A DNA stretch of 64,000 nucleotides. Origin: PVC group bacterium. Its GTDB lineage: Bacteria > Omnitrophota > Gorgyraeia > B26-G9. Location of the stretch: assembly GCA_024231215.1 (NCBI GenBank), contig JAAEQR010000142.1:100593-164592 (forward strand), written 5' to 3'. Made by a program: the position numbers and the translations under genes. The notes under the pieces were generated by a model. The model did no database searches, was not told the origin of the DNA, and was given only the letters and a program-made list of their open reading frames with translations. This document shows positions 8,774 to 61,050 of this stretch, in pieces (within the stretch, counting starts at the first letter, position 1; every line of letters begins with the position of its first letter).

Positions 8774-9958
8774 ATGTCAAAACAACCAGATCAAAAAGGA
8801 TACTTTGGCCAGTTCGGTGGAAAATTCGTTCCAGAAACACTTATTGCCGCGTTAAATGAATTAGAAACCGCTTATAATCACTCGAAACGTGATCCTAAGT
8901 TTAAAAAACAGTTGCAATTTTATCTTAAAGAATTCGCCGGCAGACCAACACCCTTATACTATGCCGAACAGTTAAGTAAACACCTCGGCTTAAAAGTCTA
9001 TTTAAAACGTGAAGACTTATTACATTCCGGAGCTCATAAGATCAATAATACCTTAGGACAAGTCTTACTGGCTCTACAAATGAACAAACGACGTATTATC
9101 GCAGAAACCGGGGCAGGACAACATGGAGTAGCTACAGCGGTAGCCGCAGCACGTTTTGGCCTAGAGTGCGAAGTATATATGGGCGAAGAGGACATGCATC
9201 GCCAAGCACTGAATGTTTTCCGCATGAAACTTCTTGGCGCAAAAGTCAATTGTGTAACATCCGGGAGCAAGACATTAAAAGACGCAACAAATGAAGCTAT
9301 TCGCGACTGGGTAAGCAATGTCCGTACTACCCATTATATTCTGGGATCAGTTGTTGGACCACATCCTTACCCGGTAATGGTAAGAGACTTTCAAGCAGTT
9401 ATTGGTAAGGAAGCACGCAGCCAAATACTCCAAAAAGAAAAAAGACTTCCTGATTATCTTATGGCCTGTGTCGGCGGAGGCAGTAACGCAATCGGACTTT
9501 TTCATGAATTTTTTAACGACAAAAAAGTAAAAATATTCGGAATTGAGGCTGCCGGACACGGATTAAGTTCGGGGCAACATGCAGCAAGCTTATCAAAGGG
9601 AACAGTTGGCATTTTACACGGAAATAAAAGCTATCTTTTACAAGATAACGATGGCCAGATAAAAATAGCCCATTCTGTATCCGCAGGGTTAGATTATCCG
9701 GGAGTAGGCCCTGAACACTCCTACTATAAAAAAATAAAAAGAGCAGAGTATGTTGCAATAACCGACCAGGAAGCTTTGCAGGGATTAAAAAACCTCTCTA
9801 GGATAGAAGGTATAATTCCTGCACTTGAATCTGCACATGCTATTGCTTATTTATACAAAGCTGCAAAAAAAATCAAAAAGAAAAGTATTGTTGTTGTCTG
9901 TCTCTCAGGAAGAGGAGATAAAGACATGGAAATGGTTTCAAAATTAAAGGTGCTTTAA
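8774..9958 (+). CDS. trpB: tryptophan synthase beta chain
   Basis: 394 aa; [20 protein letters not shown] (PLP lysine), GGGSNAIG motifs. Confidence 0.92.
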
Positions 9959-9960
9959 AC

Positions 9961-10755
9961 ATGAATAGAATAGCTGTGAAAAACAATCATTTACAACAAA
10001 TACAAAAAAAAGCTTTTGTTGTCTATATTACTGCTGGATTTCCTAACATAAAAACAACAGAACAATTAATCCCCGTACTCGAGAAAAACGGGGTTGATTT
10101 CATTGAATTAGGAATGCCTTTTTCCGATCCGATTGCTGACGGTCCTACAATTCAAAAATCTTCATATACTGCGCTGCAAAAGGGTATGAATTTAGAAAAG
10201 TTCTTCAAGTTAGTATGCAGTATTCGAAAGAAAAGCAATATACCGTTAATCATGATGACTTATTATAATCCAATATATAACTATGGAATTAAACGGTTTG
10301 CAAAGATAGCTCATCAGTCAGGCTTAGACGGAGTAATCGTGCCCGATTTGCCTATTGAAGAAGCTTCTGAATTAAATCAATGTTTAAAACAATTTGATAT
10401 CGCTAATATCTTTTTAGTCTCTCCGGTAACACCAAAAAAACGCATCAGGAAAATCGCCGCTTTATCTTCCGGATTTATTTACTATGTATCTTTAACCGGA
10501 GTAACAGGGGTACGGGACAAACTTCCATCAGATTTAGTACAAAATATAAAAAAGATAAAGAGCGTAACAAAAAAACCTGTATTCGTAGGATTCGGGGTGT
10601 CAAAACCAAAGCAGATAAAAAATATTGATCGTGCTGCCAGCGGAGTTATTGTCGGCAGTGCTATTATTAAATCAATTGCAACTCATTACGGAACAAAAAA
10701 TTTTTTAAAAAAGATCGGGAAATTTGTAGCTTCCCTTAGTATTGTAACCAAATAA
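9961..10755 (+). CDS. trpA: tryptophan synthase alpha chain
   Basis: 264 aa; ELGMPFSDPIADGPTIQ, GFGVS motifs. Confidence 0.9.
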   Translation: MNRIAVKNNHLQQIQKKAFVVYITAGFPNIKTTEQLIPVLEKNGVDFIELGMPFSDPIADGPTIQKSSYTALQKGMNLEKFFKLVCSIRKKSNIPLIMMTYYNPIYNYGIKRFAKIAHQSGLDGVIVPDLPIEEASELNQCLKQFDIANIFLVSPVTPKKRIRKIAALSSGFIYYVSLTGVTGVRDKLPSDLVQNIKKIKSVTKKPVFVGFGVSKPKQIKNIDRAASGVIVGSAIIKSIATHYGTKNFLKKIGKFVASLSIVTK

Positions 10756-54782: not shown

Positions 54783-54807
54783 GTAGGGACAGGTCTTAGG
54801 CCTGTCC
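54783..54807 (+). repeat. REP element (GTAGGGACAGGTCTTAGGCCTGTCC)
   Basis: GTAG head plus 7-bp GGACAGG/CCTGTCC palindrome; near-identical copies at 58317 and 58626. Confidence 0.6.
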
Positions 54808-56177: not shown

Positions 56178-57095
56178 ATGGGTGAGATTAAAAAAGAAGA
56201 AAAAAGTATATTAGATTTAGTTGTAGAGGAAACTACTGCAAAACCTAAGCTTAATTGGCAAGAATTTTTGGAGAAATACCCTCCTGGATCTGAATATAGT
56301 ATTATCGGTTGGGCTGACTCCATACTTGTTAGAAATCAATACCGCGGTATTGTAGCTCCCACAATAACTAGATATTGCCCTCAATGCAAGGGGAATCGTT
56401 TCTTTCATTGCAACGACAATACGTCCATTCAGTTTCTTGCGTTTCAAGGTGGCGAACAATTCTTTTTTCTAAAATATATATGTAGGAATTGTGGAGAAAT
56501 TTATATAGACATGGCCTTATTTATTAGAACTATAAATAATACCCCAAAAGGAGACGCAATAGTTCAAAAGTTAGGAGAACTGCCAGTTTTTGGGCCACAC
56601 TCGCCGGCTCAGCTAATCACACTCGTTGGTAAAGATCGAGATCTTTATTTGACTGGTAGGAGAGCAGAAAGTCAAGGGATGGGAATCGGCGCGTATTCTT
56701 ACTATCGACGTATTGTTGAAAATCAAAAAAATGCAATCATTGATAAAATAATTAAAGTATCGCAAAGCCAGCATTCTTCGCAGGAGTTCATCGATAGTTT
56801 AAAAGAAGCAAAAAAAGAAACACGATTCACAACAGCAATCGAAAAAATTAAAGATGGAATTCCAGAATCACTTAAAATGTATGGACACAACCCTCTAACA
56901 ATTTTACATAAGACGTTGAGTGAGGGGTTACATGCTGGAAGTGATAACGAGTGCCTAGAATTGGCAAAAGACATTCGAAATGTATTAACAGAGTTAGCCG
57001 AAAGATGTGCAACTATTTTAAAAGACAATGAAAAATTAAAAAGGTCTATTGGGAAACTTTTTAAACTACCTGAGCAGCCAAAAAATAAAGAATGA
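56178..57095 (+). CDS. hypothetical zinc-ribbon + alpha-helical protein
   Basis: 305 aa; CPQCKG...x26...CRNCGE four-Cys ribbon; C-terminal helical region (...LTILHKTLSEGLHAGSDNECLELAKDIRNVL...) faintly reminiscent of DUF4145-type domains (weak, from memory). Confidence 0.55.
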   Translation: MGEIKKEEKSILDLVVEETTAKPKLNWQEFLEKYPPGSEYSIIGWADSILVRNQYRGIVAPTITRYCPQCKGNRFFHCNDNTSIQFLAFQGGEQFFFLKYICRNCGEIYIDMALFIRTINNTPKGDAIVQKLGELPVFGPHSPAQLITLVGKDRDLYLTGRRAESQGMGIGAYSYYRRIVENQKNAIIDKIIKVSQSQHSSQEFIDSLKEAKKETRFTTAIEKIKDGIPESLKMYGHNPLTILHKTLSEGLHAGSDNECLELAKDIRNVLTELAERCATILKDNEKLKRSIGKLFKLPEQPKNKE

Positions 57096-57520
57096 ATACC
57101 TTTATAGCGCATAATAGCGAATACCTATCCGGCCTAGCTTCATTAATAGCAATCACCACAGCAGTCTTTGCCATACCATCATTTATCATAAAAAAAATTC
57201 TTTATTGTCGGGAGCAGGGTAGACTCTTAAAATATAAAACTATGATTTTCAACATCAACACTCTTGCTGCGGTCAAAACCTTTAAGTTTGTTGATAAAGA
57301 AAAAACTGATTTAACGATCAGAGAGATAGTATCTCTTACTAATAACAAAGAATTGTTCGAAAAATTATATAAGGATCGACCAACAGCTTGGAACGACATC
57401 CTGGAAATTCAAAAAATAAATAACGAGATAATTTTTTATAAGGCAGCTATTCTTACACCTTTAGCTGTACTTGTAATCATGGCACTTAAATTTATAGCGG
57501 TAACCCAATTAAAGCTGTAA
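57092..57520 (+). CDS. small 2-TM membrane protein, translationally coupled to the zinc-ribbon protein
   Basis: 142 aa; ATGA overlap with the upstream stop; TM helices at the N-terminus (LASLIAITTAVFAIPSFII) and C-terminus (ILTPLAVLVIMALKFIAV). Confidence 0.5.
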   Translation: MNTFIAHNSEYLSGLASLIAITTAVFAIPSFIIKKILYCREQGRLLKYKTMIFNINTLAAVKTFKFVDKEKTDLTIREIVSLTNNKELFEKLYKDRPTAWNDILEIQKINNEIIFYKAAILTPLAVLVIMALKFIAVTQLKL

Positions 57521-57667: not shown

Positions 57668-57691
57668 GGGCGGACAGCCATCCGCCCCTAC
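57668..57691 (-). repeat. REP element (minus strand reads GTAGGGGCGGATGGCTGTCCGCCC)
   Basis: GGGCGGA/TCCGCCC stem followed by CTAC; same family as 3455-3482, with an internal GGACAGCC resembling the second REP family. Confidence 0.5.
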
Positions 57692-57738: not shown

Positions 57739-58311
57739 ATGAAAGTTATTGGAATTAATGGAAGTCCTCGGAAAGACGGGAATACGCAGAAACTTATTGA
57801 GAAGGTATTTGAAGCTCTCAAAACTGAAGGGATTGAAACTGAACTTATCCAGGTTGGCGGTAAAAACATCAAAGGATGTATAGCTTGCTATAGATGCGCT
57901 GAGAATAAAGATAAACGATGTGCAGTTACCAACGATATTTGTAATGAAGTCCTAGAAAAAATGCTCGAAGCTGATGCTATTATCTTGGGTTCACCGACAT
58001 ATTTTACTAGTGTCACAGCTGAGCTCAAAGCCCTTATTGACCGATCGGGGATAGTTGCAGTTGTTAATGGAGGGCTTTTCCGTCACAAAATAGGTGCTGC
58101 GGTTGTTGCGGTCAGAAGGGGAGGGGGGATTCATTGCTTTGATACCATAAATCACCTCTTCCAAATGAGCCAGATGTTTGTGGTCGGATCAACATATTGG
58201 AACCTTGGTTTTGGGCGCAATCCAGGCGAGATAACCAACGATGCTGAAGGCCTTAAAAACATGGCTGATCTCGGGAAATCTATGGCTTTTTTACTAAAGA
58301 AAATTCAATAA
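57739..58311 (+). CDS. iron-sulfur flavoprotein-like NADPH-dependent FMN reductase (Isf family)
   Basis: 190 aa; flavodoxin-like fold (MKVIGINGSPRKDGNT...ILGSPTYF) with the compact Cys motif C-x2-C-x2-C-x6-C (GCIACYRCAENKDKRC). Confidence 0.75.
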   Translation: MKVIGINGSPRKDGNTQKLIEKVFEALKTEGIETELIQVGGKNIKGCIACYRCAENKDKRCAVTNDICNEVLEKMLEADAIILGSPTYFTSVTAELKALIDRSGIVAVVNGGLFRHKIGAAVVAVRRGGGIHCFDTINHLFQMSQMFVVGSTYWNLGFGRNPGEITNDAEGLKNMADLGKSMAFLLKKIQ

Positions 58312-58316
58312 ACTAT

Positions 58317-58341
58317 GTAGGGACAGGCCTAAGGCCTGTCC
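58317..58341 (+). repeat. REP element (GTAGGGACAGGCCTAAGGCCTGTCC), 12 nt upstream of the RAYT start
   Basis: Read directly; perfect inverted copy at 58626-58650. Confidence 0.65.
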
Positions 58342-58352
58342 GAGACGCGACA

Positions 58353-58919
58353 ATGACAAAAAAAATAACCCGTAAAACACATAATCGTTTAAATGGATAC
58401 GATTATTCGCAACCAAATTATTATTACATCACTACCTGCACAGAAAACCACAAAGACTGGTTTGGGGTAATTAATAACAATCAAATGATTTTAAATTCAT
58501 TTGGCCTTATCTGCCGGGAACACCTCCAAAAACTACCTGATCATTATAAAAATATCGAAATCGACAAATTCATAATAATGCCCAATCATGTCCATGCAAT
58601 TATAACCATTAATTATCAGGGTAACGGACAGGCCTTAGGCCTGTCCCTACATAATGACAATAATATTGATATTGCCAAAAATGAACCATTATCTAAAACC
58701 ATCCGTGATTTCAAATCATTCTCATCCCGGGAAATCAACAAAACAATAAATAACGGGAACAAATTCAAATGGCAAAGATCTTTCCATGACCATATAATTA
58801 GAAACGAAACGTCATTAAACAAAATCCGTGAATACATAGCAACCAATCCGGCAACGTGGTATACGGATGAATATACTATCGAAAAAATGGAGATTACAAA
58901 GAAAATCCACACAAAATAG
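58353..58919 (+). CDS. REP-associated tyrosine transposase (RAYT; IS200-like HuH-Y1 transposase)
   Basis: 188 aa; HuH motif MPNHVHAII; C-terminal KWQRSFHDHIIRNE...IREYIATNP with the catalytic Tyr, matching the E. coli TnpA_REP layout (..PEHMHCIW.. / ..IWQPRFWEHAIRN...YIYINP) from memory; flanked by and containing REPs. Confidence 0.75.
   Translation: MTKKITRKTHNRLNGYDYSQPNYYYITTCTENHKDWFGVINNNQMILNSFGLICREHLQKLPDHYKNIEIDKFIIMPNHVHAIITINYQGNGQALGLSLHNDNNIDIAKNEPLSKTIRDFKSFSSREINKTINNGNKFKWQRSFHDHIIRNETSLNKIREYIATNPATWYTDEYTIEKMEITKKIHTK
58626..58650 (-). repeat. REP element inside the RAYT coding sequence (in-frame, encodes ...GQALGLS...)
   Basis: Exact reverse complement of 58317-58341 (the perfect match extends to 29 nt). 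Confidence 0.65.
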
Positions 58920-59449: not shown

Positions 59450-59785
59450 CTACATATCAAAATGCAACTGCTTATGTGCTAGTTCAGCTGATTTTGTTTT
59501 AAGAGCCTTAGGAGCTTTTTTAGCCACGGATACCAGATGATTTACCGGCTCCAACTTCACAGCCTTAAATGGCTTCTGAGACTCTTTTCCTGCGACATGC
59601 CCACGACCATCTAAATACTCCAAAAGCGTCTTTCTAATAAACACTGACGGCTCTAAATGACTTCCATGAGCTGCCACTTGAACGCTTAGCCATTGCTCAT
59701 GCGTAAGCCTCACATTAATAGTTTTAGTATATTTAATTTGCTTCTTAGGTCTGCCCCTGGTAGGTTTCTTCTGAACGTGATTCAC
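59450..59785 (-). CDS. ribbon-helix-helix mobilisation-type protein (MobC/relaxosome accessory-like), orphan
   Basis: 111 aa; GTG start behind a strong AAGGAGGT RBS; RGRPKK...INVRLTHEQWLSVQVAAHGSHLEPSVFIRKTLLEYL resembles MobC-type RHH proteins of mobilisable elements; composition looks GC-richer than the neighbours. Confidence 0.5.
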   Translation of the reverse strand: MNHVQKKPTRGRPKKQIKYTKTINVRLTHEQWLSVQVAAHGSHLEPSVFIRKTLLEYLDGRGHVAGKESQKPFKAVKLEPVNHLVSVAKKAPKALKTKSAELAHKQLHFDM

Positions 59786-60036: not shown

Positions 60037-61050
60037 TTATATTGCCTGTAAAATTAATTCTTCATTTGGTGAGAATACCTCTTCCAAAACATTAAGAATA
60101 TCCAAAAACTTTAAAATAGCCATCTCATTATAAATAATGTTATTTCCCTTAAAATATGCATTCAGATCGTGAGCTAATACAATATGAACTTTCAAGAAAG
60201 CATTTTTCAACCTATCAAGGTTATCACTGCTATCAGAAATATAAATAGGTTCCATTTCTTTACAAACTGCATCTACTATGTTATCCATGGAAGTTCCCTG
60301 TAATTTACTCTTATACGAAGGATATGCCGACATTATGACTTCCCGGCTAAGCACTTTCATTAAAAAATTATTACTTTTTAAAATACTGCCTGGCTGGCTA
60401 TATGCAATATCTTTATATCTGTCTTCAAAATCTTTCTGTATTTGCTTTTCTATAATATGAACACAAAATAAATCAGATAAAGCACTAAGATAATCTGAAA
60501 CTGCTATATTCTTTACCTGCCAAGTTACTAAGAAACCTTGTTTATTGATAATAATCCTCAAGACAGCCCAAATAAGATAATATTCCTGCTCTTTGGTGTC
60601 CATATCTTGCGATATGTTTATTTGATACATTTTGCCATTTTTCTGCAATAAAGGTATTACCTCTTTGCTTTCGTTTAACATGATATCGTGATTAATCCTG
60701 TATTTTTGTTTAAGAATACTTAGCCGAGACTGATTATCAGAACAATTGGTATATTTTTCAATAAATCCCATTCTGGTCATCGGCAGAACTCTCTGCAGAT
60801 CAGAATCGGTTAGCTGTCTATTATCTGCATCTAAAATACTTTGTGAATTTAATTTTTGTAAAAAACTATCCTTGATTTCTACAATTGATATATGAACCCG
60901 CGGAGACAATAAACTCTGGATAGAACTGTGCCTTGAAGCAGCAAAAGACGTAGTCTCCCCTGCCCAAGCTATCTGTCCTAAAAGAATAGTATTTAGCAGT
61001 ATTACAACTATGCTTTTATTTATATTATGCTTTGGGTTAAATTTAACCAT
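60037..61050 (-). CDS. secreted hypothetical protein
   Basis: 337 aa; N-terminal signal-like IVVILLNTILLGQIAWAG; AT-rich; no domain recognised. Confidence 0.5.
   Translation of the reverse strand: MVKFNPKHNINKSIVVILLNTILLGQIAWAGETTSFAASRHSSIQSLLSPRVHISIVEIKDSFLQKLNSQSILDADNRQLTDSDLQRVLPMTRMGFIEKYTNCSDNQSRLSILKQKYRINHDIMLNESKEVIPLLQKNGKMYQINISQDMDTKEQEYYLIWAVLRIIINKQGFLVTWQVKNIAVSDYLSALSDLFCVHIIEKQIQKDFEDRYKDIAYSQPGSILKSNNFLMKVLSREVIMSAYPSYKSKLQGTSMDNIVDAVCKEMEPIYISDSSDNLDRLKNAFLKVHIVLAHDLNAYFKGNNIIYNEMAILKFLDILNVLEEVFSPNEELILQAI

Follow-up and report, generated by a model that had tools for sequence, protein, structure and literature searches.

A subclass 2.4-like RAYT gene from an Omnitrophota genome that carries a REP palindrome in frame within its coding sequence

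Features of the RAYT locus

The window analysed here is a whole stretch of 64,000 nt (64 kb) from a PVC group bacterium. On its plus strand, at 58353-58919, lies a gene for a protein of 188 amino acids which, judged by the open reading frame list, PF01797, NCBIfam, an AF2 model and Foldseek, appears to be a RAYT (TnpA_REP) of the subclass 2.4 type. The preceding FMN-reductase gene stops at 58311, and the 41-nt gap between this stop and the RAYT ATG (58353) holds a REP, GTAGGGACAGGCCTAAGGCCTGTCC (58317-58341, plus strand). This upstream REP consists of a GTAG foot (58317-58320) and a 9-bp stem (GGACAGGCC/GGCCTGTCC) with a TAA loop, and it is separated from the ATG by 11 nt (58342-58352) rather than by the 12 nt given in an earlier, sequence-only reading of this DNA. 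The same reading had placed the exact reverse complement of the 25-mer inside the gene, in frame and translated as GQALGLS, and this was confirmed. The internal copy occupies 58626-58650 (minus strand). Its hairpin (58626-58646) forms codons 92-98, and its foot, read as CTAC on the sense strand (58647-58650), supplies L99 and the first base of H100. The identity between the upstream and internal REPs extends across 28 nt (ATGTAGGGACAGGCCTAAGGCCTGTCCG).

Codons 92-100 lie between the HuH motif and the catalytic Tyr, as had been proposed. The codons of the HuH motif, N78-H79-V80-H81 (NHVH, which fits the subclass 2.4 signature NH[IFV]H), are at 58584-58595, those of W140-Q141 at 58770-58775, and those of the Tyr motif, Y161-I-A-T-N165-P, at 58833-58850, all on the plus strand. 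The internal REP falls in the variable beta3/alphaC loop (residues 87-112, NYQGNGQALGLSLHNDNNIDIAKNEP; 58611-58688, plus strand), which was delimited by alignment with 4ER8 and by the AF2 model.

A third copy of the REP, with two mismatches (GTAGGGACAGGTCTTAGGCCTGTCC), is found at 54783-54807 (plus strand), in an intergenic region directly after a terminator-like hairpin with a T-run. Another GTAG-footed hairpin, with a different stem (GTAGGGGCGGATGGCTGTCCGCCC), lies on the minus strand at 57668-57691, between genes and upstream of the FMN-reductase gene. Its fold as single-stranded DNA has an energy of -9.0 kcal/mol (z -3.7), and it possibly represents a second REP class. There was no flanking REP within 300 nt downstream of the RAYT stop. 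An Rfam scan of the window returned two tRNAs only and no match at the RAYT locus, and a promoter and terminator scan around the RAYT gene gave the same counts as shuffled sequences and was uninformative. The RAYT gene occurs once in the 64-kb window, and its protein cluster has one member from one contig.

Folding and dispersal of the REP

With at most three mismatches to the 25-mer allowed, the 64-kb window contains three sites, compared with 0.00 expected from 100 shuffles. Three copies in 64 kb, with the downstream side of the gene bare, sit less easily with the reading of the locus that we prefer below. As single-stranded DNA, each of the two perfect copies forms a hairpin with a stem of 9 bp and a loop of 3 nt, with a folding energy between -10.2 and -10.6 kcal/mol and z about -5.5 to -6 (-10.6 kcal/mol and z -5.5 for the upstream copy).

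The exact 21-mer core of the REP was found at 22 sites in species-representative genomes, and 20 of these sites are in six Omnitrophota MAGs; one related MAG has nine of them, another four and a third three. A GTAG foot is present at 18 of the 22 sites, always on the TAA-loop side. The earlier reading had allowed for the 25-mer having no further copies in the genome, and further copies do exist. The repeat in the window thus appears to be a genuine dispersed GTAG-REP.

Two explanations were considered and rejected. A chance palindrome was ruled out by the shuffles, in which none was expected. An assembly artefact was ruled out by the same layout in independent NCBI, JGI and ENA assemblies (loci L002, L016, L104, L106 and L107). 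In the classification of Quentin, Siguier, Chandler and Fichant (BMC Genomics 2018;19:475; PMC6006769), RAYT class 2 is marked by a canonical REP, a hairpin with 5' GT[AG]G at its foot, no more than 1000 nt to either side of the gene. Both the upstream and the internal REP are canonical REPs at such a distance.

The enzyme

Pfam PF01797 (Y1_Tnp) matched the protein with 37.9 bits, over the cut-off of 23 (E 2.2e-9). As the domain is split by the loop, the alignment covers residues 105-164 only, which are its C-terminal half. Among NCBIfam families, REP_Tyr_transpos (NF047646) scored best. This match is broken into two stretches by the loop, and its 68.9 bits remain under the curated cut-off of 80 because the REP-coded loop splits the domain; the model was presumably built mainly on other subclasses. 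In a Foldseek search with the AF2 model, the best match was 4er8_A (E 1.1e-6), and the top 30 matches were all Y1 transposases. By its sequence and its predicted fold, the protein is a REP-associated Y1 transposase, as the sequence-only reading had held.

The three RAYT motifs were located at residues 78-81 (NHVH), 140-144 (WQRSF) and 161-166 (YIATNP). H79, W140, Q141, H147, Y161 and N165 are invariant in the homologue alignment, and P166 is at least 90% conserved. The conservation of H79-V-H81 and Y161, together with the AF2 model and the Foldseek result, indicates a ferredoxin-like HUH fold. The context of the Tyr is Y---NP, the class 2 signature of RAYTs, and not the Y---Q of the IS200 type. 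The consensus of the homologue alignment for this motif is YIxNNP. That the window protein has YIATNP instead, as well as its NCBIfam score under the curated cut-off, is somewhat at odds with our preferred reading.

The AF2 model has a mean pLDDT of 85.1, with a core above 90 and residues 91-110 at 51-60. The latter belong to a coil, likewise at 51-60, between a strand (79-86) and a helix (113-131). The REP-encoded residues fall in this predicted surface loop, outside the confident core and in the segment with the lowest pLDDT. The earlier reading had doubted that a protein with such an insertion would still be active. This doubt finds little ground, since the residues invariant in the family are all present and the REP peptide would lie in the low-confidence surface loop. 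On this evidence, no catalytic residue is lost.

Using phmmer against 4ER8, residues 77-86 were aligned with residues 57-66 of the chain, and residues 124-167 with residues 76-121. The segment between the two blocks has 37 amino acids in the window protein and 9 in 4ER8. Compared with E. coli TnpA_REP, the window protein has approximately 28 additional residues; loop residues 87-112 account for most of these, and the REP codes for only about nine of them. The HuH-to-Tyr spacing (H81-Y161) is about 80 residues compared with about 54 in E. coli TnpA_REP, in agreement with the excess of some 25 residues given in the sequence-only reading. The beta3/alphaC loop was found in each of the 38 homologues aligned and is highly variable among them. 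It is therefore lineage-typical; however, it is not a loop of REP-free relatives, which had been raised as the contrary outcome, because the relatives' loops hold REPs too.

The internal REP in close relatives

Four relatives (L002, L016, L104 and L106), with 56-66% amino-acid identity to the window protein, have the same 27 nt at the same codons. Every position of the internal REP is identical in five orthologues. At the third positions of the REP codons, 90 of 90 pairwise comparisons are identical, compared with 52% in the rest of the gene. This evidence on synonymous sites is limited to the window clade, as grouping the relatives by identical stems would be circular for all other groups. 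In L107 the internal REP has a stem variant (GGACAGGGC/GCCCTGTCC) at the same place, which keeps the pairing and changes two amino acids. The upstream REP of L107 has the variant too, with one G-T wobble. Both in the window and in its closest relatives, about 11-40 nt separate the upstream REP from the start codon, which would place this REP in the 5' UTR. A second in-frame REP in another loop is a point on which close relatives differ (L104 and L106).

Because the closest relatives have the internal REP at the same codons, this copy is inherited and not new. Thus, of the proposal that a REP had been inserted in frame into the gene, the in-frame position was upheld, and a recent event was not.

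Palindromes in distant relatives

The comparison also covered 67 non-redundant relatives. A perfect hairpin of at least 8 bp was found in the segment between HuH and WQ in 56 of them. In the controls, such hairpins occurred in none of the 67 N-terminal segments, in five of the 67 C-terminal segments and in 23 of 1340 shuffled loops. Palindromes of REP type thus occupy this site in nearly the whole subclass. Of the 56 loop hairpins, 49 have GT[AG]G or C[TC]AC as a foot: in 29 it is a 'double foot', in 12 it is on the sense strand only and in eight on the antisense strand only. The internal REP follows the HuH motif at distances of 5-53 codons.

GTAG is read in frame 0 in 30 cases and in frame 1 in 11 cases, and never in the frame in which TAG is a stop. 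CTAC is read in all three frames. The peptides encoded by the REPs consequently differ, e.g. VGAGLKPAPT, GRGTARRAPT, VGARHAVPLH and GQALGLSLH. What is conserved is the DNA palindrome and its foot, GT[AG]G or C[TC]AC, whereas the peptide is not.

The locus's own internal hairpin recurs in the flanks of 21 of the 56 loci, compared with about three expected from foreign hairpins. The flank copies are found 10-50 nt upstream or 20-100 nt downstream. Internal and flanking REPs of one locus therefore tend to match in sequence. Of the relative loci that are long (15-20 kb), about half have no second copy of their internal palindrome, and seven of them (L001, L025, L031, L071, L078, L085 and L100) have a perfect internal palindrome of 10-15 bp and no other copy in 15-20 kb. 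The internal REP may therefore be a passenger copy of an abundant REP in some members and not in all. Three relatives (L034, L035 and L097) have short REP-free loops, and decayed internal copies were seen in L021/P0008, L049 and L099. The retention of perfect stems over deep divergence fits selection as well as it fits passive tolerance.

Interpretation

The locus is very probably a REPtron, i.e., an apparently single-copy subclass 2.4 HUH-Y1 RAYT gene with its cognate GTAG-footed REPs, one upstream and one inverted and in frame within the gene. The internal REP would sit in the surface loop that connects beta3, the HuH strand, with helix alphaC. By analogy with the enzymes of groups 2 and 3 (4ER8; PMC8266576), the protein would bind the folded single-stranded REP on the strand with 5'-GTAG, which is the plus strand for the upstream copy and the minus strand for the internal one. 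It would then cut and rejoin at a nearby CT or CA dinucleotide, as the enzymes of these groups do, and REPs could spread in this way. That this protein would bind and cleave this REP is extrapolated from those two groups. The intragenic copy may have arisen when a REP was deposited beside or within the enzyme's own gene, and it may have persisted because the loop tolerates about nine extra residues. Its identity with the genomic REPs might be maintained by REP turnover or conversion, or by a constraint that keeps all REPs recognisable.

The internal REP might instead be a selected cis-element of the RAYT gene and not a tolerated passenger, which we consider rather unlikely. The RAYT could bind its own gene or mRNA (the hairpin of the window gene is on the antisense strand) and so limit its own expression or a replication-coupled activity. 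Alternatively, the internal REP could serve as a protected 'master copy', from which extragenic REPs are reseeded and by which the enzyme and the REP family stay co-inherited. Several of the above observations would suit such a role: the near-universal perfect palindrome at one site, the use of every stop-free reading frame, the invariance of REP codons in the window clade including their synonymous sites, the pairing kept in L107 despite two amino-acid changes, the seven loci that keep the palindrome with no other copy nearby, and the position of the upstream REP in the would-be 5' UTR. However, the relatives with REP-free short loops indicate that the element is dispensable for the protein, and some copies have decayed. 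The orientation of the foot and the distance from HuH both vary. The second in-frame REP, on which close relatives differ (L104 and L106), resembles an opportunistic insertion. Moreover, the extragenic copies show the same invariance from one MAG to the next, and conservation is thus not necessarily peculiar to the internal copy.

A recent one-off insertion of a REP or REPIN arm into the window gene, possibly disabling it, is very improbable. The complete identity of the internal and upstream copies over 28 nt is what would be expected of a fresh copy. But the four relatives with the same nucleotides at the same codons are separated by synonymous sites near saturation, L107 has its variant at the same place, and the loop is present in all of the aligned homologues. 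None of the catalytic residues is lost, and the core of the AF2 model is confident. Recent horizontal transfer of a single insertion event among the relatives is argued against by the 52% identity of third positions.

Still less probable is that the 334-bp segment from REP through N-terminus to REP moves or inverts as a cassette, whether as a REPIN-like unit whose spacer is 284 bp or as a switch that turns the gene on and off; the sequence-only reading had asked whether this unit is mobile. The two perfect 28-nt inverted repeats do enclose the start codon and the first 91 codons. However, by blastn and tblastn neither the unit nor the N-terminal segment occurs a second time in the window, and no free-standing or inverted copies were detected in the window and the 107 relative loci. 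Among the fetched loci, 92 gene copies have both halves, and every one of them is collinear. The only lone fragments, an N-terminal piece in L068 (cut by the contig end) and a C-terminal piece in L033, are unlike the REP-bracketed unit. In addition, the spacing between the REPs tracks the length of the N-terminus in the relatives (334-358 bp). HUH-Y1 enzymes act on single strands, and inversion of a duplex segment by them is not known.

That the loop peptide is under selection and the palindromic DNA a by-product can be practically dismissed: themes such as G-x-G-L-K-P-x-P-T do recur in many homologues, but GTAGGG-stem-loop-stem-CCCTAC is read in different frames to give unrelated peptides, which contradicts protein-level selection, the stems differ by lineage and are still perfectly self-complementary, copies of the same sequences are found outside the ORF as well, the segment is the least confident of the model and its synonymous sites are invariant.

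Subclass assignment and published precedent

TnpA_REP subclass 2.4 corresponds to RAYT group 4 of Bertels et al. 2017, according to the subclass descriptions of PMC6006769, to which the following comparison refers. There, the motifs of subclass 2.4 are given as NH[IFV]H for HuH, WQ for the W region and YIxNNP for Tyr. The median length is about 194 amino acids, the median HuH-Y distance is 88, and a C-terminal extension domain is lacking. The subclass has an insertion of variable length and sequence between beta3 and alphaC, and a small one (8 aa) at the end of alphaB. The W-Q positions are conserved in the REP-associated subclasses and implicated in GTAG recognition by E. coli TnpA_REP. An in-frame intragenic REP between HuH and Y is described as a striking trait found in subclass 2.4 alone.

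The window gene shares with this description the NHVH, WQ and Y---NP motifs, the size of about 190 amino acids (188) with no C-terminal extension domain, the enlarged variable beta3/alphaC insertion (HuH-Y distance 80 compared with the median of 88), the GT[AG]G-footed REP with a perfect stem adjoining the gene, and the in-frame REP between HuH and Y. 'Double foot' REPs and short loop DNA repeats are also found in its relatives. It differs in the Tyr motif, where T replaces the first N of YIxNNP, in a stem that starts with G-C, G-C and A-T and not with three G-C pairs, and in having no downstream flanking REP. Its host is an uncultured PVC/Omnitrophota MAG, whereas the paper names Cyanobacteria, Bacteroidetes and 'various phyla'. 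Judged by motifs, architecture and REP features, the window gene thus appears to be a subclass 2.4-like TnpA_REP.

The sequence-only reading had considered it unusual for a RAYT to carry its own REP. According to the subclass description in PMC6006769, this is the published hallmark of subclass 2.4, and the window locus is an ordinary new example. Beyond that description, we showed that all stop-free frames are used, that the REP codons are fully conserved in the window clade, and that a stem variant is common to the internal and upstream copies of one locus. The locus adds an Omnitrophota/PVC example to the sole RAYT subclass in which the substrate is habitually contained in the gene itself, and the analysis supplies numbers for the subclass (56 of 67 relatives, all stop-free frames, invariant REP codons and matching flank copies). 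For annotation, it explains the recurrence of GQALGLSLH, VGAGLKPAPT and GRGTARRAPT in matches named 'transposase'. The locus alone raises no new question, as the question of whether the internal copy has a function is already implicit in the 2018 description of the subclass (PMC6006769).

Comparison with other systems

Among solved structures, the best match in both sequence and fold was E. coli TnpA_REP (YafM; 4ER8), whose REPtron belongs to subclass 2.2 (RAYT group 2). Both have the HUH-Y1 core, the W-Q region and a GTAG-footed REP adjoining the gene, although the proteins are only 17% identical. The stem of the E. coli REP has a required bulge, whereas that of the window is perfect, and the segment from the HuH strand to alphaC is 9 aa in E. 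coli compared with 37 aa here. The E. coli enzyme has a C-terminal extension with a serine motif, as PMC6006769 describes it, and the window protein has no such extension. An intragenic REP is not expected in the E. coli gene, the feature being unique to subclass 2.4 in the same description.

The RAYTs of group 3 (subclass 2.5) from Stenotrophomonas and Marinomonas (Corneloup et al., NAR 2021; PMC8266576) have a very similar REP, a short perfect palindrome with an 8-9 bp stem, a 3-nt loop and a GTAG foot. They served here as the biochemical model for strand-specific binding and for cleavage at CT/CA (PMC8266576). They belong to a different subclass, with DH[LF]H as the HuH motif and YI[VI]ANP as the Tyr motif, and intragenic REPs are described as unique to 2.4 (PMC6006769).

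Frame-preserving insertion of palindromes is also known from the Rickettsia RPEs and from intragenic GTAG/CGTC REPs, which add 8-30 residues in presumably tolerant regions (Di Nocera et al. 2013; PMC3733652). Those insertions are in unrelated housekeeping and repair genes (PMC3733652), whereas the host gene here encodes the enzyme that is thought to mobilise the repeat. Unlike those insertions, the intragenic site here is the same across the whole subclass.

The TnpA proteins of IS200/IS605 (IS608, ISDra2) share the HUH-Y1 fold (Foldseek hits 2-30) and also recognise DNA hairpins, which are subterminal and lie on one strand, by means of a 4-nt guide. IS200/IS605 elements are multicopy insertion sequences with hairpins at the element ends and a Y---Q motif. 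In contrast, the window RAYT has one gene copy in the window, dispersed hairpins, one of them inside the ORF, and a Y---NP motif.

REP copies in and around the RAYT gene

The RAYT gene (a REP-associated tyrosine transposase gene; ORF 58353-58919, 188 aa) carries one arm of an inverted pair of perfect REP copies, as the sequence-only reading had described. The 25-mer GTAGGGACAGGCCTAAGGCCTGTCC is located at 58317-58341 (+), and its exact reverse complement lies in frame within the gene at 58626-58650. Identity between these two copies extends over 28 nt, and in single-stranded form both fold into a hairpin of 9 paired bases and a 3-nt loop (-10.2 to -10.6 kcal/mol; z about -5.5 to -6). The upstream REP begins 6 nt past the stop codon of an NADPH-dependent FMN reductase gene and ends 11 nt, rather than the claimed 12 nt, before the RAYT ATG. 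The internal hairpin corresponds to codons 92-98 (GQALGLS), and its CTAC foot continues into L99 and H100. Searching the window with up to 3 mismatches revealed a third copy, intergenic, at 54783-54807 (2 mismatches); at the same threshold, 100 dinucleotide-preserving shuffles of the window gave no match to the 25-mer.

Perfect hairpins with a GT[AG]G foot numbered six in the window versus 0.8 expected, and they include all three copies of the 25-mer. At 57668-57691 (-), the footed-hairpin scan also returned a GTAG hairpin whose stem differs (GTAGGGGCGGATGGCTGTCCGCCC; -9.0 kcal/mol as single-stranded DNA). It is intergenic and upstream of the FMN reductase gene, which is thus bracketed by two inverted GTAG hairpins. 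This hairpin may represent a second REP class; the scan also marked it as terminator-like. A 111-aa ORF (59453-59785, -), situated some 530 nt downstream of the RAYT gene, weakly matched a NikA-like Pfam family (mobilisation protein), below the cut-off (E 3.4e-4), which hints that the surrounding DNA may belong to a mobile or plasmid-derived region. Pfam gave no match for the nearby ORFs 56178-57095, 57092-57520 and 60037-61050.

Additional copies of the REP were also present in related genomes. The exact 21-nt hairpin core was found at 22 sites in species-representative genomes, 20 of them within six Candidatus Omnitrophota MAGs (nine sites in one, four in another and three in a third). A perfect GTAG foot was present at 18 of the 22 sites, invariably on the side that the orientation of the loop predicts (TAA loop, 5' GTAG), the pattern that marks a GTAG-tagged REP family. 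The core also occurred once each, without a GTAG foot, in a Lachnospiraceae MAG (L007 3735-3755) and an Aestuariivirga MAG (L012 184-204). These matches could reflect chance, contamination of the bins or a palindrome of unrelated origin.

The RAYT protein and its loop

The protein exceeded the family cut-off for Pfam Y1_Tnp. Its top NCBIfam family was REP_Tyr_transpos, with 68.9 bits under a cut-off of 80, because the loop splits the match into two. In the AlphaFold2 model (38 homologues; mean pLDDT 85), the core is above 90 and the coil between strand 79-86 and helix 113-131 reaches just 51-60. The top solved-structure match was 4er8_A, a REP-associated tyrosine transposase with a bound REP hairpin, followed by the IS200/IS608/ISDra2 transposases. 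H79, W140, Q141, H147, Y161 and N165 are invariant in all 38 homologues. Considering these residues, the confident core and the fold match, the protein looks intact by sequence and predicted fold, and the model places the REP-encoded residues in a low-confidence surface loop. A database record of the identical protein comes from an NCBI "PVC group bacterium" MAG (497-kb contig). Aligned by phmmer with E. coli TnpA_REP (4ER8), the window protein has 37 aa from its HuH strand to the following aligned helix, versus 9 aa in the E. coli enzyme, and a HuH-to-Tyr distance of about 80 versus about 54, in agreement with the longer spacing given in the sequence-only reading.

The internal REP in close relatives

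All 38 homologues in the protein alignment have an extended loop following the HuH motif; the closest relatives (56-66% identity) have GQALGLSLH or the variant GQGLALSL at the position of the window REP. We examined the DNA of five of them, L002, L016, L104, L106 and L107. The sequence GGACAGGCCTTAGGCCTGTCCCTACAT occupies the same codons in the first four. In L107, the internal REP has the stem variant GGACAGGGC/GCCCTGTCC, which changes the peptide to GQGLALS and keeps the stem pairing, and the same variant occurs, with a single G-T wobble, in the upstream REP. Codon alignment of five genes showed 100% identity at the nine REP codons (third positions 90/90 pairwise), whereas the rest of the gene showed 68% nucleotide identity and 52% third-position identity. 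This alignment contradicts a recent one-off insertion into the window gene.

L104 (10435-10455) and L106 (629-649) have a second in-frame REP in the sense orientation, with the stem GGACAAGGC/GCCTTGTCC, which codes for CRDKAKPCP in the loop directly before FKWQRSF. This second REP is absent from the window gene, and permissive loops are therefore still gaining or losing REPs in this lineage. In L104, the RAYT ORF and the called start of a dnaE-like gene (DNA polymerase III alpha) share 23 nt (10611-10633); Di Nocera et al. (2013) noted that replication and repair genes are enriched in intragenic REPs. L002 has a REP-like hairpin of another class (GGTTCAGGCagGCCTGAACC plus CTAC; 10540-10563) near the end of the RAYT ORF, with the stop two codons later. 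REP-like C-terminal tails, e.g. VGTGLQPV and CLAPTG, were also seen in other aligned homologues.

Loop palindromes in distant relatives

We surveyed 80 metagenomic relatives (31-45% identity) and the other fetched loci, together 67 non-redundant genes. Perfect hairpins of 8 bp or more were found between HuH and WQ in 56 of the 67, versus none in an equal-sized N-terminal segment, five in a C-terminal segment and 23 among 1340 shuffled loops. Among these 56 loop hairpins, a GT[AG]G or C[TC]AC foot is present in 49, and both feet are present in 29 (the "double foot", GTAGGG...CCCTAC); their stems differ widely between lineages. GTAG was read in the two frames (30 and 11 cases) that avoid the TAG stop, whereas all three frames occur for CTAC. 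The common DNA architecture yields unrelated peptides (VGAGLKPAPT, GRGTARRAPT, VGARHAVPLH and GQALGLSLH). The varied frames and unrelated peptides show that the DNA, rather than the peptide, is conserved at the loop site. The reading-frame analysis contradicts selection for the loop peptide at the protein level.

The internal palindrome recurs elsewhere in its own locus, with up to 3 mismatches, in 26 of 58 loci. The extra copies are mostly 10-50 nt upstream or 20-100 nt downstream of the ORF; a few lie inside it. In 21 of 56 loci, the flanks were matched better by the gene's own hairpin than by 95% or more of the foreign hairpins (about 3 expected). Short REP-free loops (L034, L035 and L097) and decayed REP copies (L021, L049 and L099) were also found.

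Tandem partial (half-REP) duplications were observed in the loops of L033, L055/L060, L068, L085 and L090, giving repeated peptides such as GRGTLH, VGAGS and VETGLKQRNVNTHFN, three times each. In L004 (1477-1506), partial GTAGGGACAGG units form a comparable run immediately upstream of an extragenic REP. The half-REP duplications may be products of slippage or repeated cleavage and joining. The loops of L045, L096, L046 and L072 contain two REPs in inverted orientation, paired as in a REPIN and each read in frame, for example VGAQFIAP...GAINRAPT. L033 has a C-terminal-only RAYT fragment (8896-9084) 6.6 kb from the full gene, and L068 an N-terminal fragment (7-93) at the contig edge, adjoining REP copies at 112 and 236. 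Each fragment may be a decayed second RAYT copy.

Possible mechanism

The upstream REP, the inverted in-frame REP in a low-confidence loop and the dispersed copy form an architecture that was observed to be inherited and conserved at the DNA level. By analogy with enzymes of groups 2 and 3 (4ER8; Corneloup et al., NAR 2021, PMC8266576), the window protein would bind a folded single strand bearing 5'-GTAG and would not bind the complementary iREP strand. Cleavage and joining at a nearby CT or CA would follow, and the predicted substrate strands are + for the upstream REP and - for the internal one. The internal copy is most simply explained if a REP was deposited in the sole part of the gene tolerating it and was thereafter kept uniform with the REP family. 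It seems unlikely that the internal REP is instead a selected cis-element, serving self-regulation or as a master copy. The proposal that the 334-bp REP-N-terminus-REP segment is a mobile or invertible cassette found no support: the window has no extra copy of it, and both halves were collinear in all 92 gene copies possessing both. The original observation is confirmed and its interpretation partly supported.

Comparison with subclass 2.4

The TnpA_Y1 family has been divided into 12 subclasses (Quentin, Siguier, Chandler, Fichant, BMC Genomics 2018;19:475, PMC6006769). According to that paper, subclass 2.4 (Bertels RAYT group 4) has the motifs NH[IFV]H, WQ and YIxNNP, a median length of 194 aa, a median HuH-Y distance of 88 aa, a beta3/alphaC insertion variable in length and sequence with short DNA repeats, and REPs that are canonical long and "double foot". 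REPs placed in frame inside the gene, between HuH and Y, are described there as unique to this subclass. The half-REP loop duplications match the "short repeats" of its Fig. S6. The window gene agrees on all features tested except the Y motif, which is YIATNP. With loop hairpins in 56 of 67 relatives and the phenomenon already described there, the internal REP is not "unusual", as had been thought; the window gene is a new example of it, from a PVC/Omnitrophota MAG. To that description our analysis appears to add some quantification: how the reading frames are used, the invariance of the REP codons, the stem variant of L107 and the comparison of own with foreign hairpins in the flanks.
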